NCBI GenBank assembly: GCA_022825675.1
Contig: JAJDWK010000096.1
Location: 11,820 to 75,819 of the forward strand
Length of the DNA: 64,000 nt
Direction of reading: 5' to 3'
Source: Anaerolineae bacterium
GTDB lineage: Bacteria; Chloroflexota; Anaerolineae; Aggregatilineales; Phototrophicaceae
Shown here: in pieces, positions 28,175 through 54,976 of the stretch
How positions within the stretch are numbered: the stretch's first letter is position 1
How the letters are laid out: each line of letters opens with the position of its first letter
Notes under the pieces: model-generated
Told to the model about the DNA's origin: nothing
Database searches by the model: none
The model's input: the letters and a program-made list of their open reading frames with translations, nothing else
Program-made: the position numbers and the translations under genes

Positions 28175-28253
28175 ATCTCTAGCATAAGCGTAACTTCCTT
28201 GTAAGATGCAGGGCTTAGGCTCAACGGTATTCACGGAATTTGGAGAGCAAGGC

Positions 28254-29426
28254 ATGCTAAAGCGAATTCGACCCAATCCGCTGCTGCTGTTTACCTTTGC
28301 CCCGCTGATTCTGCTGCTCTTGATAGCCAATCTGCCCTCCCCCGAGGTCTCTCAAGCCGAGCGGTCCTGCGCGCCCCAGCACCTGAGAACTGTCAATTGG
28401 AGCACCGATTTCTGCAACAGCGCTGTTGATTATGCCGACATATTGGTGGGCAATCCGACAAAAGATGGCATCCCCGCTTTGAGCGAGCCGCGGCTGGAAT
28501 CCATTGAAGAAGCGGCGGAGTGGCTGGTCGAGCGCTCGCCCGTCATCGCGCTTGCCCTGGGCGAAGAAGCGCGCGCCTATCCCCTGGCAATTCTGATGTG
28601 GCACGAAATTGCCAACGACAGCATCGGCGGCATACCAGTAGCCGTGACCTTTTGCCCGCTCTGCAACAGCGCCATCAGCTTCGACCGCCGCGTTGATGGC
28701 ATTGAGCTGGAATTTGGCGTCAGCGGTTTGCTGCGTAACAGCGACCTCATAATGTATGACCGCGAGACCGAATCCTGGTGGCAGCAATTGACGGGCGCGG
28801 GCTTGGCGGGCGCATATACCGGCGCGGCGCTGGATATCCTGCCCTCCCAACTGCTTAGCTTCGGCGCTTTTGCCGAGCGTTACCCGGCGGGATTGGTGCT
28901 ATCCCGCGATACTGGCTACAGCCGCCAATACGGCATCAACCCTTACAACGGCTATGACAGCCGCGCTGGGCAGCCCTTCCTCTTCCGCGGCGCGGTGGAC
29001 CCGCGGCTGCAATCGCCAGTTGCGCGGGTGCTGGCGGTCGCGCTTGATGATGTCGCCAAAGCCTATCCCTTTGCGCTGCTGCGCGAGCGGCTGGCGCTCA
29101 ATGATCAACTGGGCGAGGTGCCGGTTGTCATCTTCTATCAGAGCGGGGTCGCCAGCGCTTTGGACGAGCGCGCCATCGATACCGCGCGCGATGTCGGCAG
29201 CGCCGGCATGTACCGCGCGGAAGTGGATGGGCAGCGGCTGACTTTCCACAGCGAGGCGGCGGGCGGCTTCCGCGATGCCGAGACCGGCAGCAGTTGGAAC
29301 GCCTTTGGCGAGGCGATTGCCGGCGAGTTATCCGGCGCGCAGCTGCAATGGATTGACGCCTTCCCGCATTTTTGGTTTGCCTGGGCGGCATTCTACCCAG
29401 AAACGGAACTGTATACCCTGCCCTGA
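28254..29426 (+). CDS. Secreted DUF3179 domain protein (paralogue 1)
   Basis: Signal/TM MLKRIRPNPLLLFTFAPLILLLL; hallmark VAVTFCPLCNSAISFDRRVDG...FGVSGLLRNSDLIMYD...WWQQLTG. Confidence 0.8.
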   Translation: MLKRIRPNPLLLFTFAPLILLLLIANLPSPEVSQAERSCAPQHLRTVNWSTDFCNSAVDYADILVGNPTKDGIPALSEPRLESIEEAAEWLVERSPVIALALGEEARAYPLAILMWHEIANDSIGGIPVAVTFCPLCNSAISFDRRVDGIELEFGVSGLLRNSDLIMYDRETESWWQQLTGAGLAGAYTGAALDILPSQLLSFGAFAERYPAGLVLSRDTGYSRQYGINPYNGYDSRAGQPFLFRGAVDPRLQSPVARVLAVALDDVAKAYPFALLRERLALNDQLGEVPVVIFYQSGVASALDERAIDTARDVGSAGMYRAEVDGQRLTFHSEAAGGFRDAETGSSWNAFGEAIAGELSGAQLQWIDAFPHFWFAWAAFYPETELYTLP

Positions 29427-29472
29427 AGCAGGCGCATATCGCGCCGAGTAGACGATACAAAAAGGAAATCCC

Positions 29473-30645
29473 ATGTGCAAACGAAGCCTGAGCTTTGCCC
29501 TGATTCTTTGGCTCTGCGCCGCCTGGATGATGCCGCTGGGCGCATCGGCGCAGCTTTCTTGCGAAGAGCCGCCGCCACCCTTTGATAATACGCAGCTGCT
29601 GGAAAATTGGCAGCGGGTTTGGAACCTGACCGATGTCTGCCGCAGCGTTGACGGCGTTTTCAGCGAGATACTCTCGGGCGGCGTCGGGCGCGATGGCATC
29701 CCGCCGATCGATGCCCCCCAATTTGAAGACATCGCTGACGCTGATGCCTGGCTGCAGCCCGCTTCGCCCGTGATTGCGCTGGAAGTTGCCGGCGCTGCCC
29801 GCGCCTATCCACTGGCGATTTTGACGCGGCACGAAATCGTCAACGATGTTTTCGGCGATGTGCCAGTCGCGGTTACATTTTGCCCGCTTTGCAACAGCGC
29901 GGTTGTCTTCGACCGCCGCGTTGATGGCGAGCGGCTGCGCTTCGGCGTCAGCGGTTTGCTGCGCAACAGCGACCTCATCATGTGGGATGATGTAACCCAA
30001 TCGCTCTGGCAGCAGTTGACGGGCGAGGGCATTGTCGGCGCGTATACGGGGCACCTGCTGGATATTGTGCCATCGCAGCTGGTTGGCTACAGCGCCTTCA
30101 AAGAGCGCTATCCCGAGGGGCAGGTTCTCTCGCGGCAGGGGCGGCTCTATGGCAGCAATCCCTATGTCAACTATGACAGCAGCGAACAGCCCTTCCTCTT
30201 CCGCGGTACGCCGGATGCCCGCTTGCATGCGACCGAGCGCGTGCTTGGCGCGGTTGTCGCTGGCAGCAGCGTCGCCTACCCTTTCAGCCAATTGTCAGAA
30301 ATGGCGCTGATCCAAGACGAAATTGCCGCGCTGCCGGTTGTCGCGCTGTGGCAGCCGGGCGCTGTCAGCGCGCTGGACGCCGCCCTTATCGACAGCTCCC
30401 GCGATGTCGGCATGGCGGCGCTCTTCGACCGCACCGTAGCGGGCGAAGCGCTGGATTTTCAGCTAAGCGATGGGCGCATCACCGATGAACAGACTGGCAG
30501 CCAATGGGATATCTTTGGGCGCGCGACAGCGGGCGCGCTGGCGGGGACGCAGCTGCGCCTGCTCAACGCCTTCCCGCATTTTTGGTTCGCCTGGGCGGCA
30601 TTTTATCCGGATACGCTTGTCTATGGCATCGACAGCGGCGAGTGA
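29473..30645 (+). CDS. Secreted DUF3179 domain protein (paralogue 2)
   Basis: Signal peptide, VAVTFCPLCNSAVVFDRRVDG...FGVSGLLRNSDLIMWD...LWQQLTG. Collinear with paralogue 1 along its whole length. Confidence 0.8.
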   Translation: MCKRSLSFALILWLCAAWMMPLGASAQLSCEEPPPPFDNTQLLENWQRVWNLTDVCRSVDGVFSEILSGGVGRDGIPPIDAPQFEDIADADAWLQPASPVIALEVAGAARAYPLAILTRHEIVNDVFGDVPVAVTFCPLCNSAVVFDRRVDGERLRFGVSGLLRNSDLIMWDDVTQSLWQQLTGEGIVGAYTGHLLDIVPSQLVGYSAFKERYPEGQVLSRQGRLYGSNPYVNYDSSEQPFLFRGTPDARLHATERVLGAVVAGSSVAYPFSQLSEMALIQDEIAALPVVALWQPGAVSALDAALIDSSRDVGMAALFDRTVAGEALDFQLSDGRITDEQTGSQWDIFGRATAGALAGTQLRLLNAFPHFWFAWAAFYPDTLVYGIDSGE

Positions 30646-31005: not shown

Positions 31006-31794
31006 CTAAAGAATTTGATCGAGAAATTCTTGCGTGCGCGGGTGATGCACAATTTCGGGGCTGAAGAAATTCTCTGGCGGTCCCTCTTCGACGATATAGC
31101 CCATATCCATGAAGATGATGCGGTCGGCGACTTCGCGGGCGAAGCCCATCTCATGCGTTACCACCAGCATGGTCATGCCAGTTACCGCCAGTTCTTTCAT
31201 CACATCCAACACTTCTTTGATCATCTCGGGGTCGAGCGCGGAGGTGGGCTCGTCAAAGAGCATAATCTTGGGTTCCATCGCCAGCGCGCGGGCGATGGCG
31301 ACGCGCTGCTGCTGCCCGCCCGAAAGCTGCCCGGGGTACTTAAACGCCTGCTCGGGGATTTCGACGCGCTCCAGCAATTCCATCGCCCGCTGCTCCGCCC
31401 GTTCGCGCGCCCAGTGGCGCACTTTCATGGGCGCCAGCGTGATATTGTCCATCACTGTCAGATGCGGGAAGAGGTTAAATTGCTGGAAGACCATGCCCGT
31501 CTCGCGGCGGATTTCGGCGATATTTTGCACATCGTGGCTGAGCTCGATGCCATTGACGATAATGGTGCCATCTTGATGCTCTTCCAGGCGGTTGATGCAG
31601 CGGATTAAGGTGGATTTGCCGGAGCCGGAAGGACCGATAATCACCAGCACTTCCCGCGGCATCACCTCCAGCGAGATATTGCGCAGCACATGAAAGTCGC
31701 CGAACCATTTGTTCATTTCGCGACAGATGATAATGGGCTCGTCCCCGGGCATCATTTGATTGCCTTGGTCTTGCATGCGCCCCTCCTTAGACAT
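31006..31794 (-). CDS. aapP: Polar amino-acid ABC transporter ATP-binding protein
   Basis: [15 protein letters not shown] Walker [16 protein letters not shown] signature, [11 protein letters not shown] Walker B. Confidence 0.9.
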
Positions 31795-31805
31795 GAGAAA
31801 TGCGG

Positions 31806-34800
31806 CTAGAGCTGCTGCGCCCGCGTCGCGCCGGAGCCGGTCGCCTCTATGCGCCGGCTGATGTAAGACATGATATAGCTAAATACAAAAAACAGGATAG
31901 CGGCATAGAGGAAGGTCTCCTGCCGCCGCTGCAGGAATTCTGGCTGCGCGACCACGCGCACGGCGATGCCCATAATCTCCGCCAAGCCAACGATGAAGAC
32001 CAGCGAGGTATCTTTGAAGAGGGAAATAAATTGCCCGACCAGCGCCGGGATGACCGCCCGCAGCGCTTGCGGCAGCAGAATGTGAAGGGTGGTCTGCCAG
32101 CCGGATAAGCCAATTGCCTGCGCCGCTTCGACTTGGCCGCGGTCTATCGATTGCAAGCCGCCGCGCACATTTTCCGCCAGATAAGCGGCGCTGAACATGG
32201 TGATGCCCACCCAGGCGCGCACCGCCTGTTCAATGGTCGCCAAAGTTGGGTCGACCAAAGGCACCACCAGGGTCGCCAGGAAGAGCAGCGTAATCAAGGG
32301 TACGCCGCGCACGACCTCGATATAGAGGATGCAGGCGTATTTGACCGCCGGCAGATTGCTGCGCCTGCCCAGCGCCAGCGCCAAGCCAATCGGGAAAGAT
32401 GCGCCGATGCCGAGGATTGTCAGCTGCATGGTCAGCATCAAGCCGCCCCAGAGCCGCTTGTCCGAAAGCGGGAGCAGGTCTCCTGGCGGGACTTGTAAGA
32501 CGCCTTGCCCATCCAGCAGCAGCACAAAAGCGGGCACGAGCAGCAGCGCCGCCACCCAGGCGGCAGCAACCGCCGCCATACGCTTGGACTGCGGGTCGAT
32601 GCCATTAAGGTCCCGCGGCTTGATTGCGTCCGCCTGCCCGCTTTCACCGCGCTTGAATGCGGCCGCGCCCGCCGCCAGCCATAGCAGAAAATAGATGCTG
32701 GACCAGCGGTCAAGCCCCGTGAACATGCCCAGCCAAAGCAATGTCAGCAACAGCAAGCCGACAATGATGCTGTTGGAAGCCCACATGGACGCGCCCGAGA
32801 AGAACATCCATCCCAGCCATAGTAGCAGCGCGGCAGCCGCCAGCAGCGGCGCATTGGCATCGCCGCCCGCCGCCACAATGTTGATATTGGCAAAAGCCAA
32901 AACAAAGGCGCTGCAGCATATCAGATAGCCGAAGCGCTTTGCCGACAGCGACAGCCGGCTGGCGGCGGCGCGCCCCTGCAAGCCAGCAACAATGCCGATG
33001 CCCGCCAGCAGCAGCCAGGCAAAGCCATACGCGGCTTGGCCGCTATGCCAGCCATCCCAAACAAAATTGATAATTGAGGCTTGCATTATCTGCAGGAAGA
33101 AGCCGCCCAGCAGCAGCGCGTAGCCCCAGGTGCCGCGATAGTGCAAGCCGATGAAATACATCAGCAGCAGCCAGAGTATGCCGCCCACGATGCTGCCCAG
33201 CGCCGCCCCCGAAAGCCCGCCCACGCCCGATGCCAGCAGGAACATCACCAGGGGGAAGCTGCCCCAGCCATAGACCATAATGCGGTTGAGCGCGCCTTCG
33301 GCATCTTCGCCCGCGTTGCGGCGTTTGAGCCAACTTTCAAGCCGCCGCGCCAGCCAGACAAGCACGAAGGCAATCGCGATCCTGAGGGCGACCACGACAG
33401 CGCCGCCACTGGCGAAGGTATCGGCGAGAAAAACGAAGTAGGCAATCACAATCAGCAGGGGTGAAAGCGCCGCTGATGCCACCAGCGCCCGCGCCTGGCG
33501 GCTGCTGAAGACAGTCTGCTCGCCCAGCAGATGCGCCAGCGCCCGCCCCAGCGCAAAACCCCAAACCGCCGTCAGGAACAGGGGCAGAAACAGCGCTTCC
33601 AGCTGCCGAAAGAATGGCGGGATGAAATGCACCAGATAGGTCTGCAAGCTGCGGAAGCCGCGGAATTGATTGTCGATGAGCACGACGAATGGCGCTTCTT
33701 TGCCGTTTATCAGCGGGCGGGAGGCGGTCACAACCAGGTCATTGTCGGTCAAGCGCACATAGCGGGATTCAGTCGCGCTGAGCGTGCGCTGGACGATGGG
33801 GTAGATGCCTGTCGCCGCCAGGATGGCGCTGCCTTCTTCGCCTTCGATGGCATTCTTGGAGAGCAGATACCAGCCATCTTGCGGGATATCAAAAGTGAGC
33901 GCATCCCCCGCCGCGCTCAAAACGCCTTCAGCCAGCGCGTCCAGTGTCTGCGCGTCGCGGATGGCGACTCGCATCGGCGTCGCGCCCAGTTCATAAACCG
34001 CCAGCACCGATTGCGGCTTCAGCAGGCGCACAAAGAGGTCGCGCAAGAAAGTGGCTTCCCGCGGGCTGGGGTTGATAAGCTCTTCGTCATCATCGGCTTG
34101 ATCGGGCTCGCCAATCAAATCTTCCGTCAGCTGCTGCACCAGCGTTTCGCCCAGGTCTTCCAACTGCTCGCTGGCGAGGGTGATGGCGGAGAGAGCGTCG
34201 ATATCAACGCTGATGCCCGCTGGCAGCGCGTCCGCCAGCGACAGTTCTATGACGGCGGCTTCCAGCGTTTCCAGCGCCGCCAGGATGGGCGCTGCCGGCG
34301 GGTCCAATGCCTGCGCCGCCCGCTCCAGCCGCCCCAGCCAATAGCGCAGGTCGGCGACAGTCGCATCCGGCGCGGTCAGGCGGGACTTGATATCGGCGAC
34401 AGTCTCCGCAGTGGCGGCGAGCATATTGTTGGTGCGCATGAAAGTGCGGATGGACAGGCGCGTCCGCTCTTCCAGGTTCTCGGTCAACTCGCCACTGAGC
34501 ATGCTGTCGAAGGTATCGCCAGTTTTGATTTGCTGCTCCAGCCGGTTGCGCGCCGCGTTTGCCAGGGCGTTAGTAGCCCGGTCAGAAAAGCCTGCCAGCT
34601 CGCTTAAGGTATTCAAATCGGCAACTTCGTCCAGCGCCAGGCGGACAGAGACAGTCTCGCCCTCTTGGGCGATGAATGCCAGATTCTCCTGGGGTTTGAG
34701 GGTGCTGGCGCGGTCGATGATATGCACATTGCCGGCGGTGAAATAGGAAGGCGGATGCGGGATGAGCGCTTCTATCAGCGGCGGCAATACCGCGAGCAGG

Positions 34801-35192
34801 GCAAGCGTCCCCAGCGAGAACAGCGCCAAAGCGCGCGCAATGCCCCGCCCCCAAGCCGCCAGGCTGAGGCCCGTCAGCAGCGCCGCCAGCAATGTTGTGA
34901 GCGCGAGCCGCCATTCAAAAATCGGCTCGAAGGATTCCATCATGAACAGGCGCTGGTTGTTGATGATGGCATACCAATTGGCGGAGCGCACCGCCCACAG
35001 TACAAAGCCGATGAGCATCGCCAAAATCAGCAAGCCGGAAACCGCCGATACCACAATATCAACTGGCGAGCCGAAAAGGTTCTGACGCATCCAGCCCGCC
35101 AAACCAACTTCCAGCGTGGGCGGCGGCAGCGCCGTCTCATCGTGCTCGTGGATGACGGTTATGCCGGCATCACTGCGGATTTGCTGCGACAT
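31806..35192 (-). CDS. aapM: AapM-like amino-acid ABC permease with a roughly 760-aa insertion (1128 aa)
   Basis: The N-terminal ~150 aa ([28 protein letters not shown]...SANW) and C-terminal ~216 aa (HisM/GlnP-type core ...[15 protein letters not shown]...[12 protein letters not shown]...) are AapM-like. Between them lie a ~380-aa non-hydrophobic segment and many extra TM helices. Confidence 0.8.
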
Positions 35193-35199
35193 CGGGCAA

Positions 35200-36723
35200 T
35201 TACCTCGTCACCAATTGGAAGCGCTGATTGACAAGGTTCATAATCAAGGCAATACACAGGCTGATTAACAGATAAGACAGCAGAACCATCACGATGCCGG
35301 TGACCGACTGTCCCGACTGATTGATGATGGTATAGGTAACCTGATAGATATCGGTGTAGGAGACGGCGATCGCCAGGCTTGAGTTTTTTGACAAATTGAG
35401 GAATTGGTTGCCCAGCGGCGGGATGATGACGCGCAGCGCCTGCGGCAGGATTATCAGCCGCAGGGTATCGCTTTGCGACAAGCCCACGGCACGCGCCGCT
35501 TCCAACTGCCCTTTGGGCACCGCCTGGATGCCGGCGCGCACAATCTCGGCGATGAAGGCTGAGGTGTAAATCACCAAGCCCAAAAATACGGCGAGATACG
35601 GCGGGGAAATCTCGATGCCGGTCTCGACATTGCGCCCGCGCCGGTCGAGGCTGGGCGGGCGGAAAAGCAGCGGCTGACGAGTATGCGTCAATTCCTGCTC
35701 GATGGTCAGCATGCCGGAGGCGAAGGCCTCATCGTATTCCATTTCGACAATGCTGTCGCGTCCGTCATCATAAACGGGGATTTCTGGCGGTGTCGGGCGC
35801 ATGCCGACAATCAGCCAGCCGAAGAGCGTAAAGCCGATGACGGTCATGGCGGCGTAGCGACTGCGCGGGGCGGGCTTGCCGGTGGCTTCGGTGATGTAAC
35901 CGTAATAGCGCCAAAGCGCCAGCGCCACAATCACACCCAGCACCACAAAAAGCGCCCAAACGCCAAAGTGCGCCGAGGGTATCAGCTCAAAGATTGCCAC
36001 GCCTTTGATGCTGATGTAGATGCCGGGGCGGAACTCAATCGGCGTGCCGCTGCCGACAACTACAATGCCCAGCAGATTCACCAGCAGCAGCAGCGCGATG
36101 CCAAGCTGGCGCAAGCGCGAGCGCCATAGCTGGCTGCGCAAATTGCCGGTGAGCTGCCAAAGCAGCACTATGAGGAACAAAGACAGCGCGTATTGCAGCA
36201 GCGGCAGGCTGCGGATGCCTTCTTGCGGGAAGGCGATCGCCTCTTGCTGCTGCGGCAGCGAGAAGATGGCGATGAAATACCAGGCGATGATTTGCAGCAG
36301 CACTGGCGTATTGCGCAATATCTCAACATATATGCGCGAAAGCGTGCGCAGCAGGAAATTGCGATTCAGCAGGAAAATGCCGACCAGGATGCCGAGCACC
36401 GTGCTGGCGAGCAAGCCTATCAGCACCACGCGCAGCGTATTCACAAAGCCGACGCGGAACGCGTCGATATAACGGTCGTTGGAAGAATAGCTGCCGGAAT
36501 CCGCCAGGTCGAAGCCGGCGCGGTTCTGCAGAAATTCAAAATTCGGCGATTGATTGGTGGATTCCAGCGCGCTGTTGATGCGAGTGCCGAGGTCGTTCAT
36601 CACGACGGCGACAATCAATACAAAAAGGATTTGCGCGATGCCTTGCAAGATGCGCCCATCGCGGAGGATGGCGGGGAAGAAAATATCTTGTTTGCTATTT
36701 TCGCTGCGCATGGCGCGCCCCAT
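35200..36723 (-). CDS. aapQ: AapQ-like amino-acid ABC permease (extended, 507 aa)
   Basis: ...FLQNRAGFDL...YVEILRNTPVLLQII... and the C-terminal core ...IAEIVRAGIQAVPKGQLEAARAVGLS...PPLGNQFLNLSKNSSLA. Confidence 0.85.
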   Translation of the reverse strand: MGRAMRSENSKQDIFFPAILRDGRILQGIAQILFVLIVAVVMNDLGTRINSALESTNQSPNFEFLQNRAGFDLADSGSYSSNDRYIDAFRVGFVNTLRVVLIGLLASTVLGILVGIFLLNRNFLLRTLSRIYVEILRNTPVLLQIIAWYFIAIFSLPQQQEAIAFPQEGIRSLPLLQYALSLFLIVLLWQLTGNLRSQLWRSRLRQLGIALLLLVNLLGIVVVGSGTPIEFRPGIYISIKGVAIFELIPSAHFGVWALFVVLGVIVALALWRYYGYITEATGKPAPRSRYAAMTVIGFTLFGWLIVGMRPTPPEIPVYDDGRDSIVEMEYDEAFASGMLTIEQELTHTRQPLLFRPPSLDRRGRNVETGIEISPPYLAVFLGLVIYTSAFIAEIVRAGIQAVPKGQLEAARAVGLSQSDTLRLIILPQALRVIIPPLGNQFLNLSKNSSLAIAVSYTDIYQVTYTIINQSGQSVTGIVMVLLSYLLISLCIALIMNLVNQRFQLVTR

Positions 36724-36819
36724 TAGCGACCGCCGCCCTAAGGTCTCGTCAGCGGCTAGCGGAAATTCTTAAGTAGATTGTATTCAAGAGTCGACAGCAT
36801 GGCAAATTTTTTGGCGGGC

Positions 36820-36862
36820 AAAGCAAAACGGGGCTTGCCACCCGCCTGGATGACAAGCCCCG
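36820..36862 (-). terminator. Hairpin after the binding-protein gene (GGGGCTTG-N16-CAAGCCCC, then GTTTTGCTTTG)
   Basis: 8-bp GC-rich stem 33 nt downstream of the aapJ stop, followed by a T-rich run on the minus strand. Possible intra-operon attenuator. Confidence 0.4.
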
Positions 36863-36894
36863 CTCGCATTTCTGATAGGTGAAGCGGCTCCGAT

Positions 36895-37932
36895 TTAGCG
36901 GAAGGGAGCGGCGTAGAGCAAGCCGCCGCGGGTCCACAAATCGTTCAAACCGCGTTCCAGCCCGAAAATGGTATCGGGACCGAGGTGGCGATCATAAATC
37001 TCGCCATAATTGCCCAGCTGCGAAATCACATCGACCATGAACTCGTCATTGATGCCGAGGTATTCGCCAGCGACATTGTCGCCCAAGCCCAGCAGACGGC
37101 CGATGCCAGCATCTTCACTTTCCATGTGATCGCCGATGTTCATGCTGTCGATGCCAAATTCTTCTGCTTGTACCAGACCCCACACCGTCCAGCGGATGAT
37201 ATCGGCGAAGCGGGCGTCGCTCTGCGGGCTGACGGGACCGAGAGGCTCTTTGCTGATGGCGCCGGGCAGGATGGTATGCGCGGCGGGATCAGCCGAAGTG
37301 GCTTTGCGCGAAACCAGGCTGCTGATATCGCTGGTGAAGGCGTCACAAGCGCCAGCTTCGTAGGCGTCCATGATGGCGTCAAAATCGGGGAAGGTGCTCA
37401 ATTCCCAATCAGCGCCCAGCTCGTTCGCCTTGTCGGTGATATTCAGCTCGGTGGTGGTGCCGGCGGTGGCGCACATCACGATGCTTTCTTCGCCGAGCTC
37501 CGCAATGGTGCTGACGCCGAAATCAACCTTGACCATGATGCCCTGGCCGTCATAGAAAGTTGTGGGACCAAAGGTGGCGCCCCATTCGGTATCGCGGCTC
37601 ATCGTCCAGGTGGTGTTGCGGCTGAGCATGTCAATCTCGCCACTGGCGAGCGCGGTCGGGCGTTCCGCCGCTGTCAGCGGGCGGAAGGCGATAGCGCCGG
37701 CATCGCCGAGGATAGCGGCGGCGACAGCGCGGCAAATGTCCGTATCAAAGCCGACAAATTCGCCGGCGTCATTCTGGGTGCCGAAGCCCGGCAGAACCGA
37801 GTTCACGCCGCAGATAAGCTCCCCGCGTTCCATGATACGGTCGACAATGTGGCCATCTTGCGCCGAGGCGAAGCCCACGCCAAGCGCGAGCGCGACAAGC
37901 ACTACAATCGATAACAAGCGTAAACGATACAT
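36895..37932 (-). CDS. aapJ: General L-amino-acid ABC transporter substrate-binding protein
   Basis: Signal peptide; ...ELICGVNSVLPGFG...GFDTDICRAVAAAILGD...SGEIDMLSRNTTWTMSRD...FYDGQGIMV. The J-Q-M-P gene order matches Aap/Bzt systems. Confidence 0.9.
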   Translation of the reverse strand: MYRLRLLSIVVLVALALGVGFASAQDGHIVDRIMERGELICGVNSVLPGFGTQNDAGEFVGFDTDICRAVAAAILGDAGAIAFRPLTAAERPTALASGEIDMLSRNTTWTMSRDTEWGATFGPTTFYDGQGIMVKVDFGVSTIAELGEESIVMCATAGTTTELNITDKANELGADWELSTFPDFDAIMDAYEAGACDAFTSDISSLVSRKATSADPAAHTILPGAISKEPLGPVSPQSDARFADIIRWTVWGLVQAEEFGIDSMNIGDHMESEDAGIGRLLGLGDNVAGEYLGINDEFMVDVISQLGNYGEIYDRHLGPDTIFGLERGLNDLWTRGGLLYAAPFR

Positions 37933-38225
37933 CTTCCCCCTCCTCCTTCATTAGACATGGTACATTTGGCTTGCCAATCCTGCGGGACTTTACGCGCTCC
38001 CGCGGGAATGGCTGCATAACTTTAGTAAATACCAAATTGTAAAATCTGTCAAGATACAGCGCGGTCGGGGAGCAGGGCAATCGTACAGGATAATGCGCCA
38101 CAAGGGCGCAGAGTTTTGCCTTTGTGCGTTGCATGCCGGCAACGCAAACCGCCCGGCACAGTTGCCTGCCCCGGGCGGATATGTTCTTGATGGGCGCGCC
38201 AGCCGCGGCGCGCATGCGGATGCTG

Positions 38226-51023: not shown

Positions 51024-52199
51024 CTAGCCGCCCGCCGCCATATTCGCGGCGGCTTCGTCCAATTGCTCTTGCAGGCGCGCCATCGCTTCATCCAGCGTCA
51101 GCTCGCCGGCGAAGTATTGCCGCGAGTAGGTATTGGAGGCTTCATAGTAGACTGGTGCCAGAGGATGCGAACCCAGCGCTATTGCTTGCCGTTGCAGTTT
51201 CGGCACCTCGCGGGCGAATCCGTTGAGCGCGGCCGCGATGACCGGATTGTCGGTATGATAGTCAATCGTTTCAGCGTAAGGGTTACTTTGGGCTGGCACG
51301 GTTAATGTCCTGGCGGCGAACTCGGCGGCGATAGCTGGCGCATATAGATACTCAAAGACCTGGTCGACCGCGTCTGGATGTTCCGAATCGACGAAAGTCA
51401 CCAGCTCGGTAAATTGCGCCACGCCCGTTGCGCCGCCTGGACCCGCCGGATTAGGCACAATCTGCCATGCGAAGTCATCGCCGACCTGCGCCGCCACTTC
51501 TTCCACTTTCCAGCTTCCACAGATGTACATCAAAGTTTCGCCGCGCACAAAGTATTCCTGCGACTTGCCGGTTCCCAGCAAAGTATCGGCCGGCGTCTCG
51601 CCAGCTTGCATCAAGCTTTGCAGGATTTCGAGGAAGTCGCGCAAGCCAGTGGCATCAGGCAGGGTCAAAAAGCCCGCCTCGTCGAAATAGCGCGCGCCCA
51701 GGCTCATCGCCGGACCTACCAAACGATGATCTTTGTTGTCCACCGCCAGCATATAGGGCGTATTGGTCGCCTCACTGACTTGACGCAGCGCGAGCAGCCA
51801 ATCGTCCCAACTGGCTTCTGCGCTAGGCAGAGCCACGCTCGCTTGCTCAAAGAGAGATGTATTGACAAACGGGGCGACCACCGCGGCTGTATCGGCAAAA
51901 CCGTAACGCAAGCCAAGATCGCGGCTTTGCATGACATTTTGGTCGGCGATGCGCGCGATATCCAGCCCGTTCACTGGCGCGGACAGCCGCTCGTGAATCT
52001 CCGCTGCCGGCACAGTCTCCACAGTGACTTCAATCGCCGGGTTCTCCTGAGTGAAGCGCGCCAGCAAGTCAGCGTAAACATCGCACTCGTTGCCATCCTG
52101 AAAGCAGGCGAAGCGCAGCGCCACCGATTCTTGCGCCGCGCTCATGCCTGTGCTGACAGCTAGCAGGAAAAGCAAAACTATGGGCACTGCTCTGTTCAT
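51024..52199 (-). CDS. Sugar ABC substrate-binding protein, paralogue 1
   Basis: Signal MNRAVPIVLLFLLAVSTGMSAAQ. The C-terminal ~35 aa are nearly identical to paralogue 3. Confidence 0.85.
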   Translation of the reverse strand: MNRAVPIVLLFLLAVSTGMSAAQESVALRFACFQDGNECDVYADLLARFTQENPAIEVTVETVPAAEIHERLSAPVNGLDIARIADQNVMQSRDLGLRYGFADTAAVVAPFVNTSLFEQASVALPSAEASWDDWLLALRQVSEATNTPYMLAVDNKDHRLVGPAMSLGARYFDEAGFLTLPDATGLRDFLEILQSLMQAGETPADTLLGTGKSQEYFVRGETLMYICGSWKVEEVAAQVGDDFAWQIVPNPAGPGGATGVAQFTELVTFVDSEHPDAVDQVFEYLYAPAIAAEFAARTLTVPAQSNPYAETIDYHTDNPVIAAALNGFAREVPKLQRQAIALGSHPLAPVYYEASNTYSRQYFAGELTLDEAMARLQEQLDEAAANMAAGG

Positions 52200-52281
52200 C
52201 TTTTTTCCATCTTCCAACTTGAGAGCTAAGCAAGTGTCTGTGGGGTGGCTCTGCCAGCCGCCCCACAGAGTTGAACTCCCG

Positions 52282-53577
52282 CTAGCCGCCCGCCGCCAGG
52301 TTGGCAGCCGCTTGATCCAGATCTTCTTGCAGGCGCGCCATCGCCTCGTCCAGGCTGAATTCGCCAGCGAAGTACTGCGCCAGGCGCGTGTTGGAAGCGT
52401 CATAATAGGCGAAAGCCAGCGGGTGCAGGTTCATCGCCACGCCGTTTTCGGTAACTTTGGTGCCATCGACGCCCGCCTGGTTCAGCGCCGCCGATATCGC
52501 CGCGTTATCGGTATCAAACTCGACGCCCAATGCCACCACCGGCGGGTTCGGCGGGATCAAAAGCGTGCGTGAAGCGAACTCTTGCCCGACTTCTGGCTGC
52601 AAGAGATATTCCATCACGCGCGCTACCGCCTCGGGATGCTCGGTTTGGGCATAGCCGACGATGGATGCGCCGCCAGACGCGCCGGCGCTGCCGCCGGGAC
52701 CTACCGGGTTCGGCACCAGCACCCAGTCAAAGGCATCGCCGATTTCGCTGCCGAAGCCGTTGATTTGCCAACTGCCCGAATACAGCATGACCACCTCGGC
52801 ATTCACGAAATAATCGCGAGCGGAGGAATACTGCCCGCCGCCCAGCCAGACTTCGGCTGGCGTCAAGCCATTATCGAACCAGGCTTTCATCCATTCGGCG
52901 AAGGCGCGATAGCCGGGGTCATCTTCCAGGGCGAAGTTGCCGTCTTCGTCAAAGAGCTCAATGCCCAGCGCGAAGCCGGCGGAAGCGAAGCGGTGCCCCT
53001 TGTTGTCGATGGCAAAAGCGTAGGGCGTGCCGGTGGCTTCCGCCACGGCGGTGATGGCATCGGTCCAGGTCGCCCAGTCAACTTCGCCGCTCATATCACT
53101 GGGCACATCGATGCCCGCCTGGTCAAAGAGCGTGCGGTTGATGAAAGCGGCAGTCACCGAAAGCTCATCGGGGAAGGCATAGAGGCCATCGTCATCATCG
53201 CCAGCGCGGAAGGCTTGCAGATAGGGCGCGGAAAATGCGCCTTCGATTATTGCCGCGTCCGAAAGCAGGGGGCGCAGGTCCAAATAGAAGCCAGCCATGC
53301 CGCCGAAATCGGTGATGCGCGCCATATCAGGCGCTTGCCCCGCCTCCACCTGTACGCGCAGCTGATCGCGCACGGTGTTGTAGGGCACGGTATTCACCGA
53401 GACGGCAATATCCGGGTTATCGGCAGTGAAGCGCGAAAGCAGGTCATCATAAACCTGGCATTCGATGCCGTTGTTGTAGCACATGAAATTGAGCTCGACC
53501 ATATCCTGCGCCAGCGCCGCCGCCCCCAGCGACAGCATCAGGACGCTGAGCAGTAGAAAAGTTGTGAAGCGTTTCAT
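52282..53577 (-). CDS. Sugar ABC substrate-binding protein, paralogue 2
   Basis: Signal MKRFTTFLLLSVLMLSLGAAALAQD. Collinear with paralogue 3. Confidence 0.85.
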   Translation of the reverse strand: MKRFTTFLLLSVLMLSLGAAALAQDMVELNFMCYNNGIECQVYDDLLSRFTADNPDIAVSVNTVPYNTVRDQLRVQVEAGQAPDMARITDFGGMAGFYLDLRPLLSDAAIIEGAFSAPYLQAFRAGDDDDGLYAFPDELSVTAAFINRTLFDQAGIDVPSDMSGEVDWATWTDAITAVAEATGTPYAFAIDNKGHRFASAGFALGIELFDEDGNFALEDDPGYRAFAEWMKAWFDNGLTPAEVWLGGGQYSSARDYFVNAEVVMLYSGSWQINGFGSEIGDAFDWVLVPNPVGPGGSAGASGGASIVGYAQTEHPEAVARVMEYLLQPEVGQEFASRTLLIPPNPPVVALGVEFDTDNAAISAALNQAGVDGTKVTENGVAMNLHPLAFAYYDASNTRLAQYFAGEFSLDEAMARLQEDLDQAAANLAAGG

Positions 53578-53680
53578 GGTGGTGTCTCCTGTATTACTAC
53601 TGATAAAAGATACAAAATGTTGGCATCGCCCTAGCCGATACACCGGCTGGAGCGATGCCAATGCTATCAGGCTGAGCTGG

Positions 53681-54976
53681 CTAGCCGCCCGCCGCCATAT
53701 TCGCGGCGGCTTCGTCCAACTGCTCTTGCAGGCGCGCCATCGCTTCGTCCAGCGTCAGTTCGCCGGCGAAGTATTGCGCCAGGCGCGTGTTGGAAGCGTC
53801 ATAATAGGCGAATGCCAGCGGGTGCGGGTTGAGCGCGACCGCCTGGTCTTGCAGCTTGGGCACTTCGGAGGCGAAGCCGTTAAGCGCCGCCGCTACCGCT
53901 GGCGATGCTGACGGATAATCAACGCCCATGGATGCCACAGCATTATGCCCGGGGATGCCCAGGGTGCGCGAAGAAAATTCGCCGTAGACCTCCGGCTGCA
54001 AGAGATATTCCATCACCGCCGCTACCGCTTCCGGATGCTCGGTGGCGCTGTAGCCGACAAGCGCGGCACCGCCAGCGACGCCGGTGCTGCCACCGGGACC
54101 GTAGGGATTCGGCACAACAATCCAGTCAAAGGCATCGCCGATATCCGCCGAGAAGCGGCCAATCTGCCAACTGCCGCTGAAATACATCACCGCCTCGACA
54201 TTGATGAAATAATCCTGAGCGCCGCTGTATTGGCTGGTGCCCAGCCAAGTCTCGGCGGGGGATTTGCCAGCGCTGATCAGGTCATTGAGGATCATGGCGA
54301 AGGCGCGGAAGCCCTCTTCATCTTCCAGGTCGAAGTTGCCGTCTTCATCAAAGAAGTTGGCGCCCATGCTCATGGCGGGACCGGCGAAGCGATGCCCCTT
54401 GTTGTCAATCGCCATGGAATACTGGACGCCGGTCGCGCTGGCGACTTCGTCCAGCGCCATCAGCCAGTCTTGCCAGCTGGGCTCATCCATGACATCGCTG
54501 GGCATATCGACGCCCGCCTGCTCAAAGAGCGTCGCGTTGACATAGGGCGCGGTGACTGTCGCCGCGTCCGGGAAGCCATACAAGCCATCCATATCGCCCT
54601 CGGCGCGGAAAGACGCCAGAATCGCCGCCGGCACATTGTCTTCCAGCAAAGCGGGATCGTCCATCAGCGGGCGCAGGTCCAGGTAGAAGCCCGCCATGCC
54701 GGCAAAATCGGTGATGCGCGCGATATCGGGCGCTTGCCCCGCCTCGACTTGTACGCGCAACTGATCGCGCACGGTGGTATAAGGCACCGTATTCACAGCG
54801 ACGCTGATGCCGGGGTTCGCCTCGCTGAAGCGGCTGAGCAGGTCGTCATAGACCGTGCATTCATTGCCATTTTCATAGCACATGAAGTCGAGCTCGACCA
54901 TGTCCTGCGCCAGCGCCGCTGCCCCCAGCGACAGCAGCAGGGCGCTGAGCAGTAGAAAAGTGGTGAAGCGTTTCAT
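53681..54976 (-). CDS. Sugar ABC substrate-binding protein, paralogue 3
   Basis: Signal MKRFTTFLLLSALLLSLGAAALAQD. Confidence 0.9.
   Translation of the reverse strand: MKRFTTFLLLSALLLSLGAAALAQDMVELDFMCYENGNECTVYDDLLSRFSEANPGISVAVNTVPYTTVRDQLRVQVEAGQAPDIARITDFAGMAGFYLDLRPLMDDPALLEDNVPAAILASFRAEGDMDGLYGFPDAATVTAPYVNATLFEQAGVDMPSDVMDEPSWQDWLMALDEVASATGVQYSMAIDNKGHRFAGPAMSMGANFFDEDGNFDLEDEEGFRAFAMILNDLISAGKSPAETWLGTSQYSGAQDYFINVEAVMYFSGSWQIGRFSADIGDAFDWIVVPNPYGPGGSTGVAGGAALVGYSATEHPEAVAAVMEYLLQPEVYGEFSSRTLGIPGHNAVASMGVDYPSASPAVAAALNGFASEVPKLQDQAVALNPHPLAFAYYDASNTRLAQYFAGELTLDEAMARLQEQLDEAAANMAAGG

Follow-up and report, generated by a model that had tools for sequence, protein, structure and literature searches.

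Type I ABC importers generally have compact membrane subunits of 5-8 helices. AapM, BztC, NatH and YhdY, the permease subunits of Aap-type general L-amino-acid importers, belong to the PAAT family (TC 3.A.1.3), and proteins of the AapM type comprise 360-430 aa with ~8-10 TM helices. In the GlnPQ-type PAAT importers of monoderm bacteria, by contrast, the substrate-binding domains are fused to the permease. An extracytoplasmic domain of another kind is found in the E. coli maltose importer MalFGK2-E, where the P2 loop between TM3 and TM4 of MalF adopts an Ig-like fold, extends about 3 nm and binds MalE, a feature described as a unique periplasmic elaboration (PMC6906923).

The window analysed here, a stretch of 64,000 nucleotides from an Anaerolineae bacterium (Chloroflexota), contains a tight aapJ-Q-M-P operon with a greatly enlarged aapM-like gene:

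36895..37932, minus strand: aapJ-like gene for a solute-binding protein of 345 aa (SPase-I-type signal peptide, no lipobox Cys)
35200..36723, minus strand: aapQ-like gene for the partner permease of 507 aa (~110 extra residues between the core halves)
31806..35192, minus strand: giant aapM-like permease gene (ORF; homologue clusters; intact in 29 of 30 genus genomes)
31006..31794, minus strand: aapP-like gene for an ABC ATPase of 262 aa

The reading frame of the giant gene is uninterrupted, as noted in a preliminary description of this locus, and encodes a product of 1128 aa, followed by a stop codon. Its ATG start codon lies 7 nt past the stop codon of the upstream aapQ-like gene. The gene order aapJ-Q-M-P is kept in all 21 loci examined. 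The importer (aapJ-aapQ-aapM-aapP) is a polar/general amino-acid ABC system that depends on a binding protein, and the giant gene accounts for its AapM-type membrane subunit. AapJ homologues are named 'general L-amino acid transport system substrate-binding protein' in public sources; a broad L-amino-acid range of the importer is putative. As the giant protein is the only AapM-type permease of the genome, it must be a working importer subunit. Genes of this kind are currently labelled just 'amino acid ABC transporter permease', leaving 80% of the protein unannotated. An RNA library yielded contigs that extend over 2.45 kb of the giant ORF. Their depth on aapJ far exceeds that on the permease genes, a difference not seen in the flat DNA depth of this sample; given that contig depths cannot rank genes and that DNA carry-over is possible, these contigs provide only a hint that the giant gene is transcribed. 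The AapQ-like partner is likewise enlarged, as previously suspected, with its ~110 additional residues counted relative to E. coli YhdX. Its length ranges from 504 to 645 aa across the family, compared with 400 aa in two sister families. No co-variation was seen between the sizes of AapQ and AapM, and the genus with the giant AapM has the shortest AapQ of the family.

Both ends of the giant protein match normal-size AapM-like proteins of 367-418 aa, whereas the region in between is organised into several distinct segments:

34755..35192, minus strand: AapM/YhdY-type N-terminal extension, residues 1-146, with a cytoplasmic N-terminus and TM1-TM3 (BLASTP, hydropathy)
34581..34754, minus strand: N-terminal strands of a predicted extracytoplasmic β-sandwich, residues 147-204 (AF2, strands spanning model positions 4-58, pLDDT ~90-96)
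33993..34580, minus strand: helical bundle within the β-sandwich, residues 205-400, with an acidic loop at 361-372 (AF2 helices, model positions 60-255)
33615..33992, minus strand: C-terminal β-sandwich strands, residues 401-526 (AF2 strands, model positions 262-366)
32508..33614, minus strand: 12 transmembrane helices, TM4-TM15, residues 527-895 (12 helices in AF2, pLDDT 84, pTM 0.71)
31806..32507, minus strand: periplasmic linker and 5-TM PAAT-type permease core with EAA loop, residues 896-1128

The permease core is complete at residues 914-1118, with matches to Pfam BPD_transp_1 (PF00528; 5.2e-17 at 933-1116), TIGR01726 (1.2e-18) and GltK/GlnP/TcyL-type NCBIfam models (~1e-30 to 1e-32 at 914-1118), although all NCBIfam scores fall below the equivalog cut-offs. 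It is 43% identical to E. coli YhdY over 206 residues (3e-54) and also matches the Art(QN)2 permease 4YMS (4.7e-24). At the other end, hydropathy and AF2 place three TM helices at residues 39-145, and residues 14-146 align to positions 13-136 of a 418-aa AapM-like paralogue (BLASTP, 27% identity, 3e-9), whose positions 163-408 align to residues 868-1118. In addition, residues 34-73 align to YhdY 23-62 (BLASTP, 30% identity, E 0.02). The giant thus shares with AapM and YhdY a C-terminal 5-TM core with an EAA loop and a homologous N-terminal 3-TM extension. Unlike AapM, it has a total of ~20 TM helices and ~720 inserted residues between TM3 and the helix preceding the core, comprising a 380-aa extracytoplasmic domain and 10 TM helices that lack any sequence match in Pfam, NCBIfam or the PDB. 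The preliminary description was therefore right about a large insertion but overestimated its size (~760 residues) relative to the alignment with the 418-aa paralogue. To our knowledge, no larger membrane subunit of a type I importer is known. The insertion is nested at two sites: the loop joining TM3 to TM4 contains the β-sandwich, and the 10 helices follow TM4, ahead of the final helix that precedes the core.

The ~380-aa soluble segment with its acidic stretch, first noticed in the preliminary description, corresponds to residues 147-526. It is Cys-free and acidic (58 D+E vs 30 K+R), includes a 12-residue acidic stretch at 361-372 and is modelled as a β-sandwich with an inserted helical bundle (AF2 pLDDT 92). 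Its C-terminal strands contain the conserved motifs PxDGWY, GIxP and NQ(F/Y)RGxR, which form near-invariant columns in the family-wide alignment, and match the order-level forms with an hhalign probability of 99% (E 5e-18). The N-terminal strands are homologous to the order-wide 606-660-aa forms as well, whereas the helical block 205-400 coincides with gaps in the aligned 580-1000-aa forms and is mostly missing from smaller relatives. Residues 146-535 gave no match to any Pfam family, PPC (PF04151) included, up to an E of 10, a PDB sequence profile search with residues 146-908 returned only noise (E of 0.2 or more), and an ESM Atlas feature search gave no usable match. The closest fold neighbours of the β-sandwich, namely PliG, PPC/collagen-binding, GOLD and CUB domains, are tied at Z of 6 or less, within the band (Z under 8) in which a match may reflect a common arrangement alone. 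The layout is reminiscent of C3, C5 and α2-macroglobulin, in which a CUB domain is split by the thioester domain, such that β-sandwich strands flank an inserted helical domain (Foldseek, CD109, E 3.5e-4; VIA, C5 residues 938-1367, Z 5.5-5.8). However, this similarity is an analogy of layout only: ~95-100 sandwich residues superpose, but overall TM-scores are 0.14-0.20 with an rmsd above 19 Å, and the helical part of the giant's domain is not an α/α-barrel.

The preliminary description had counted about ten extra helices, and indeed residues 527-895 form 12 helices where smaller relatives have 2, i.e. 10 more. For residues 526-912, no Pfam family was found at E of 10 or less, and NCBIfam models matched the core only. 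The soluble domain probably lies outside the cell, because the 12 helices separate it from the N-out TM1 of the core, whose EAA loop must be cytoplasmic, and because the predicted topology of the 12-helix region places 20 K+R inside vs 1 outside (means of 19.1 vs 1.3 over 64 sequences).

Relatives of the giant form a graded, genus-by-genus series of lengths (606-668, ~680-720, ~800-830, 850-950, 990-1065 and ~1130 aa), with 606-668 aa in sister families of the same order and ~640-1065 aa in the remaining genera of the giant's own family. These smaller proteins, which are likewise uncharacterised, share the N-terminus, the β-sandwich, the core and the operon with the giant but are devoid of most of the helical bundle and have ~2, 6 or 10 helices at the position of its 12. 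The β-sandwich is common across the order, while the helical bundle inside it and the 10 helices represent genus-specific growth. Outside the family, class and phylum samples yielded almost nothing. Moreover, no standalone homologue was detected among 1.84 billion representatives; every match retrieved and inspected, short matches left out, was an AapM-type permease. The architecture is specific to one group of Chloroflexota. A search of the literature on AapM in Chloroflexi or on AapM/AapQ loops retrieved nothing relevant, and we found neither a family nor a paper describing such proteins. By its size and helix number, the giant is an AapM variant and not a typical member of the type.

Within the genus, which is sponge-associated and whose member studied here was found in sponge metagenomes, an intact frame of the same length is present in 24 of 24 and 29 of 30 genomes, single-contig genomes included. 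Neither a frameshift nor a stop codon was detected that would split the ORF into separate genes: one contig of 10,390 bp, assembled in an independent study of sponge metagenomes, covers positions 31291-38000, with only two indels listed, both outside the ORF. Homologues with 1126-1145 aa and 56-99% identity make up more than 120 clusters. The occurrence of the intact frame across genus genomes and independent contigs is far beyond chance. Mean identity within the genus amounts to 89% in the core, 75% and 69% in the N- and C-terminal sandwich halves, 56% in the helical middle and 51% in the extra TM helices, and many Trp, Gly and charged residues within the insertion are invariant. The giant protein is real and under clear purifying selection.

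What function could such an insertion serve? The best explanation, which we put forward tentatively and by analogy, is an importer permease with a docking platform for its binding protein, comparable to the MalF P2 loop. In anatomical terms, the normal AapM body has been split open after TM3, so that the periplasmic-side TM3/TM4 loop now holds a 380-residue domain predicted to be extracytoplasmic. Its β-sandwich arose no later than the order itself, with the ~200-residue helical bundle growing inside it later, in this genus, and 10 helices have been gained on the cytoplasmic side, where TM4 connects to the final helix before the core. The core would still import amino acids together with AapJ and the ATPase, and the soluble domain may act as a platform that is carried by the permease, stands above the mouth of the transporter and serves to capture, orient or retain the soluble binding protein. 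The extra helices would then support this domain in the membrane, as a pedestal or scaffold, and would not form a second transport pathway.

The soluble domain is predicted to occupy the same site as MalF P2. Like MalF, the giant has an N-terminal 3-TM extension and, according to its predicted topology, a folded domain in the TM3/TM4 extracytoplasmic loop of a type I importer subunit. However, it belongs to the polar amino acid family and not to the carbohydrate family, its domain is twice as large and carries an inserted helical bundle, and MalF has no extra helices after P2. A sequence or fold relationship between the two domains was not detected, MalF being absent among the Foldseek and VIA matches listed for the soluble domain. 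The likeness to P2 is thus one of position, and binding of AapJ in the manner of MalE, for which P2 has a Kd of 7-22 µM, is a proposal. A complex prediction for AapJ (residues 26-345) and the soluble domain gave a score of 0.00, which is below the mark for a verdict in either direction. The β-sandwich is a conserved, order-wide element, as expected of a functional part.

A platform of this type could be useful in a cell apparently without an outer membrane. Omp85/BamA was not found in the 95%-complete genome, while the same search was positive in all seven diderm control genomes, and the cell thus appears to lack an outer membrane. AapJ has a cleavable type of signal peptide without a lipobox. 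The giant would resemble GlnPQ in having an extracytoplasmic domain covalently joined to a PAAT-family subunit in such a cell, but the fused domains of GlnPQ are N-terminal binding-protein folds, whereas the giant combines a separate aapJ gene with an internal sandwich/helical bundle. We considered whether AapJ might be special in lacking a lipid anchor and rejected this idea: Lgt is present, and three sugar-binding proteins encoded in the window also have SPase-I-type signal peptides without a lipobox. These sugar-binding proteins also weigh against docking, since their permease was not seen to carry a comparable domain, and any need for retention would thus not be specific to the Aap system. 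Two further points speak against docking. Fold searches matched the sandwich to small, generic sandwiches alone (Z no higher than 6). In addition, conservation is lowest in the helical bundle and the extra TM helices, whose size differs strongly from genus to genus, a pattern that fits relaxed constraint as well as function. The analogy also leaves the need for 10 extra helices unexplained. It is tempting to go further and speculate that one order of Chloroflexota independently evolved a class of 'mega-permeases', in which an extracytoplasmic β-sandwich/helical domain on a 12-helix bundle tethers and hands over the free binding protein, replacing the lipid anchor or fused binding domain used by other bacteria without an outer membrane. 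The MalF-P2 principle would then have been invented twice, the second time without relation to the first and on a far larger scale, but this extended scenario is decidedly unlikely to hold in full.

Largely neutral accretion is an alternative that we consider unlikely. It assumes that the TM3/TM4 loop and the TM4/TM5 link tolerate insertions and that the bundle and hairpins arose by constructive neutral evolution, now having structural roles only, in an importer that works like any other Aap system. The graded series of lengths from 606-668 to ~1130 aa would be in line with this notion, as would the variation of the partner AapQ (400-645 aa), which does not track AapM size, the position of the extra TM helices and the helical middle as the least conserved parts, and the lack of a fold or family match pointing to a borrowed functional module. 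However, the length of the protein is nearly fixed in this genus (1126-1145 aa) down to 56% identity. Together with the invariant Trp, Gly and charged residues in the insertion and the confident, compact AF2 models, this fixed length argues for purifying selection on a folded module rather than drift.

Alternatively, the sandwich could bind envelope components or polymers, anchoring the importer to matrix, sheath, S-layer or sponge-host polymers, or it could recruit a secreted peptidase that couples extracellular proteolysis to uptake. Among its best fold neighbours are pre-peptidase C-terminal domains and the collagen-binding domains of collagenases (5sv5, Z 5.4, rmsd 3.0 Å, 91/105 residues; 1nqd, Z 4.7; 3jqw, Z 4.8), whose Z-scores are nevertheless in the noise band. 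A PPC-bearing Atlas cluster gives, by row, a TM-score of 0.41, and the 'DGWY' motif presumably resembles a motif in PPC domains, but the Pfam PPC family itself gave no match at E of 10 or less. Nor is a peptidase gene conserved in the operon across 20 loci, and although this organism occurs in sponge metagenomes, the domain is order-wide, and the habitat was checked for this genus only. On balance, we regard such a role as improbable.

Less probable again is a sensor or regulatory module, a 'transceptor' whose outward-facing domain and accessory helices would respond to a signal from outside or to the state of the membrane, either by gating the importer or by relaying the signal. Sensors typically have large extracytoplasmic domains flanked by TM helices, and the helical bundle weakly resembles four-helix bundles of the HPt/CheA-P1 type (Z of 5.4 or less), but these matches are at noise level for helical proteins, the protein contains no signalling output domain (kinase, GGDEF, HAMP), and the 20 loci examined share no conserved regulator gene.

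The preliminary description had also raised the possibility of a second transport domain, with the 12-helix bundle acting as a channel or secondary transporter in its own right within the ABC permease. Twelve helices are usual for secondary transporters and the AF2 model is compact, yet our results make this highly improbable. The TM4-TM15 model had no Foldseek match at E of 0.001 or less, its best rows being MFS entries with E 0.24-0.3, TM-scores of 0.16-0.17 and an rmsd above 20 Å, and the VIA matches, generic three-helix bundles with Z not above 9.2, extend over only ~100 residues. Comparisons between sub-blocks with hhalign revealed no internal repeat or pseudo-symmetry (best probability 40% over 25 columns). 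Moreover, relatives have ~2, 6 or 10 helices at the same place, a variation that a defined transporter fold would not tolerate, and no standalone homologue was seen among the matches inspected. Finally, the ORF might be an artefact, produced by chimeric assembly, by an overlooked frameshift or by chance read-through of a pseudogene. We found no support for this apart from a family member outside the genus whose gene is split into two overlapping frames, and an artefact is ruled out for practical purposes by the intact genus genomes, the contig without indels in the ORF and the homologue clusters described above.

Collectively, our findings indicate that an entire bacterial order has an unrelated folded domain at the MalF-P2-equivalent loop of an amino-acid importer and that one sponge-associated genus has enlarged this subunit to 20 helices and 1128 residues. 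Should the additions prove mostly neutral, the size series would illustrate cleanly how a membrane protein can become more complex step by step. If, on the other hand, the domain handles the binding protein, as proposed in the docking-platform model, it would be relevant to the retention of soluble binding proteins near the transporter in cells that have no outer membrane, and the natural size series of about 610 to 1130 aa may then serve to dissect the function of accessory domains in ABC importers.

The giant AapM-like architecture of P0001, a permease of 1128 aa, is genuine, clade-restricted and uncharacterised. Its uninterrupted ORF lies in a tightly packed operon (aapJ, 171 nt, aapQ, 7 nt, the P0001 gene, 11 nt, aapP), whose gene order is kept in all 21 of the 21 loci compared.

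Features of the operon and its downstream neighbourhood
36895..37932, minus strand, aapJ-like binding protein gene, first in operon order
36805..36777, minus strand, promoter-like site TTGCCA-17-TACAAT, inside the 171-nt aapJ-aapQ gap (36724-36894)
35200..36723, minus strand, aapQ-like permease gene, second, between the aapJ-like gene and the P0001 gene
31806..35192, minus strand, giant aapM-like ORF, encoding P0001
31006..31794, minus strand, aapP-like ATPase gene, last in operon order
28206-30645, plus strand, two tandem DUF3179 genes (406 and 390 aa; Pfam E ~1e-98 to 1e-101), opposite strand, directly downstream of the operon

Hits to Pfam and NCBIfam models are confined to residues 914-1118 of P0001, an entire His/Glu/Gln/Arg-opine (PAAT) permease core. 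Core, N-terminus and operon liken the protein to AapM/YhdY-type permeases, whereas its size and helix count fall outside the norm of that family, so that it is a variant rather than a typical member. Since a search of the window's own genome returned no other AapM-type permease, P0001 must act as the functional subunit of an amino-acid importer that depends on AapJ.

The extent of the insertion is evident from comparison with a 418-aa AapM-like paralogue of a genus-mate, which aligns in two blocks, residues 14-146 (27% identity, 3e-9) and 868-1118 (44%, 2e-55), separated by just ~26 residues of its own. E. coli YhdY (367 aa) aligns in the same two-block manner, so that the added sequence, placed after TM3 and before the helix preceding the core, amounts to ~720 residues. 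The preliminary description had thus recognised a real insertion, although its estimate of ~760 residues was too large. The layout it proposed, including an acidic 12-residue stretch (residues 361-372), agrees with the Pfam/NCBIfam core and with the hydropathy profile, which comprises three helices (39-145), a non-hydrophobic stretch of 380 residues, a long hydrophobic block (~530-900) and then the core. The genus-mate (G012) carries the normal-size paralogue (L011, G012:C14:42000-44500, 536-1792) besides its giant gene. The AapQ-like partner, expected to be ~100 aa longer than usual with extra helices, indeed has ~110 residues more than E. coli YhdX, forming two more helices and a soluble loop of ~50 aa between the two core halves. 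AapQ (loci L019-L038) measures 504-645 aa in the family; the forms of two sister families have 400 aa, and YhdX has 393 aa. Its size does not track that of AapM, and the shortest AapQ in the family belongs to the giant-AapM genus.

An assembly artefact can be dismissed with near certainty, because the frame is intact in 24/24 and 29/30 genomes of the genus in two samples, public data hold more than 120 full-coverage protein clusters of 1126-1145 aa (56-99% identity), many on contigs of 3-4.4 Mb, and a 10,390-bp contig from an independent study spans 31291-38000 with 117 substitutions and two listed indels (31788, 37958), both outside the ORF; the chimera for which a check had been advised was thus not found in these data, nor was the frameshift or stop named as refuting. 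Against homologues from the genus, identity averages 89% for the core, 75% and 69% for the two ends of the soluble domain, 56% for the middle of that domain and 51% for the additional helices, and numerous Trp, Gly, Arg and Asp residues of the inserted parts are invariant. The stretch is present in sponge metagenomes from two studies. In another family member, G487 (L029, G487:C1 5443-7540), two overlapping frames of 644 aa (N-terminus) and 260 aa (core) stand in place of a single AapM-like gene, owing to a frameshift or else to a sequencing error. RNA-library contigs from the sample of the independent 10,390-bp contig extend over 31853-34305 and some other segments, which is no more than a hint of transcription. 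Their depth is ~10-fold higher over aapJ (36883-37807; 147-185) than over the permease genes (~10-24), with flat DNA depth in that sample, which suggests an excess of binding-protein mRNA, contig depths not being a safe measure. A 10- to 100-fold depth spike of metagenome contigs with many loose ends, in the Walker/signature region of the ATPase gene (31137-31373), was rejected as a feature of the locus, because this conserved ABC ATPase sequence draws contigs of other organisms.

An AlphaFold2 model of residues 146-535, built with a 65-sequence alignment (pLDDT 92, pTM 0.82), predicts a β-sandwich (strands 149-203 and 407-511) with a helix bundle (205-400) inserted between the strand sets; the domain is acidic and free of Cys. 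Residues 526-912 are modelled as 12 helices (pLDDT 84, pTM 0.71), in line with the about ten noticed at first; smaller relatives have ~2. Two constraints, a necessarily cytoplasmic EAA loop and a first core helix that runs from outside to inside, lead to the predicted topology: an N-in protein of 20 helices (3+12+5) whose soluble domain lies outside. The positive-inside rule is in strong agreement, as loops of the 12-helix block contain 20 K+R inside and 1 outside (means 19.1 and 1.3 over 64 sequences). Searches of the inserted module against Pfam, NCBIfam and PDB sequences gave no match. With Foldseek, the soluble model best matched CD109, α2-macroglobulin and C3-C5 (E 3.5e-4, TM 0.14-0.20), in which a sandwich is likewise split by a helical domain. 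VIA-align scores all fell within the tool's stated noise band, both for the ~90-100 sandwich residues (PliG, Z 6.0; DeCLIC N-domain, 5.9; subtilisin C-domain, 5.7; PPC domain, 5.4, rmsd 3.0 Å over 91/105 residues; GOLD domains, ~5; collagen-binding domains, 4.7-4.8) and for the bundle helices against HPt-like bundles (Z ≤5.6). The nearest ESM Atlas cluster was an 827-aa Chloroflexota BPD_transp_1 cluster. The 12-helix model matched no transporter fold (Foldseek E ≥0.24; VIA Z ≤9.2 over ~100 residues of generic bundles). The fold searches initially proposed thus yielded weak, generic matches for the soluble part and no transporter fold for the helices. A literature search for enlarged AapM proteins found no paper.

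An exhaustive profile search with residues 146-908 against 1.84 billion representatives found just 69 proteins, several of them short; inspection covered 31 larger hits, which were retrieved and are all AapM-type permeases (581-1065 aa). Close relatives are labelled as Chloroflexota or Phototrophicaceae MAGs. The N-terminal strands and the C-terminal sandwich half (motifs PxDGWY, GIxP, NQ(F/Y)RGxR) recur in the retrieved proteins, and the helical bundle is mostly missing from them. Among relatives, the span from soluble domain to core is ~70, 130-145, 190-225, 320 or 385-413 residues, roughly 2, 4, 6, 10 or 12 helices. The homologue survey suggested at the outset revealed clade restriction: the domain occurs in 183/201 genomes (38/42 genera) of the family, mostly in open frames of ~640-1180 aa, as against 2/401 genomes phylum-wide, both in the family. 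An order-level profile, different from that of the other samples, detected it in 8/301 genomes of the class, seven in the family. Within the genus, 29/30 genomes have it, all at ~1130 aa, a size unmatched by the other genera sampled. In sister families of the order the corresponding proteins measure 606-668 aa, with three helices followed by a domain of 190-220 aa, two further helices and the core; this domain and the sandwich are homologous (hhalign probability 99%, E 5e-18, 184 columns). The nested size series and the shared sandwich therefore indicate a nested history. A β-sandwich has occupied the TM3/TM4 loop since the origin of the order or before; the helical bundle later grew within it, and helix pairs piled up after TM4, ahead of the final helix before the core. 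This genus shows the greatest extent of both expansions.

The closest functional precedent is the P2 loop of MalF, a type I importer subunit: this folded domain sits in the periplasmic loop between TM3 and TM4, extends ~3 nm and stays bound to MalE during the whole transport cycle (PMC6906923). By its corresponding position, the P0001 domain may work alike, and we tentatively favour a role in which the sandwich would dock or retain the binding protein AapJ, with the extra helices as its possible membrane pedestal. The signal peptide of AapJ is of the cleavable type and has no lipobox, and Omp85/BamA was not found in the 95%-complete genome by a search that detects it in 7/7 diderm controls; the cell presumably lacks an outer membrane, a context that fits docking or retention. 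Lgt is present. However, the three sugar-binding proteins of the window (51024-54976) likewise have SPase-I-type signals and no lipobox Cys (4/4 binding proteins examined), which weakens the docking reading. Neutral accretion of the added parts is about half as probable. It appears unlikely that a PPC-like sandwich binds polymers or recruits a partner, and a sensor role slightly more so. The second transport domain envisaged in the preliminary description is very improbable, as the helix block has neither a matching transporter fold nor a detectable internal repeat, and helix number varies among relatives.
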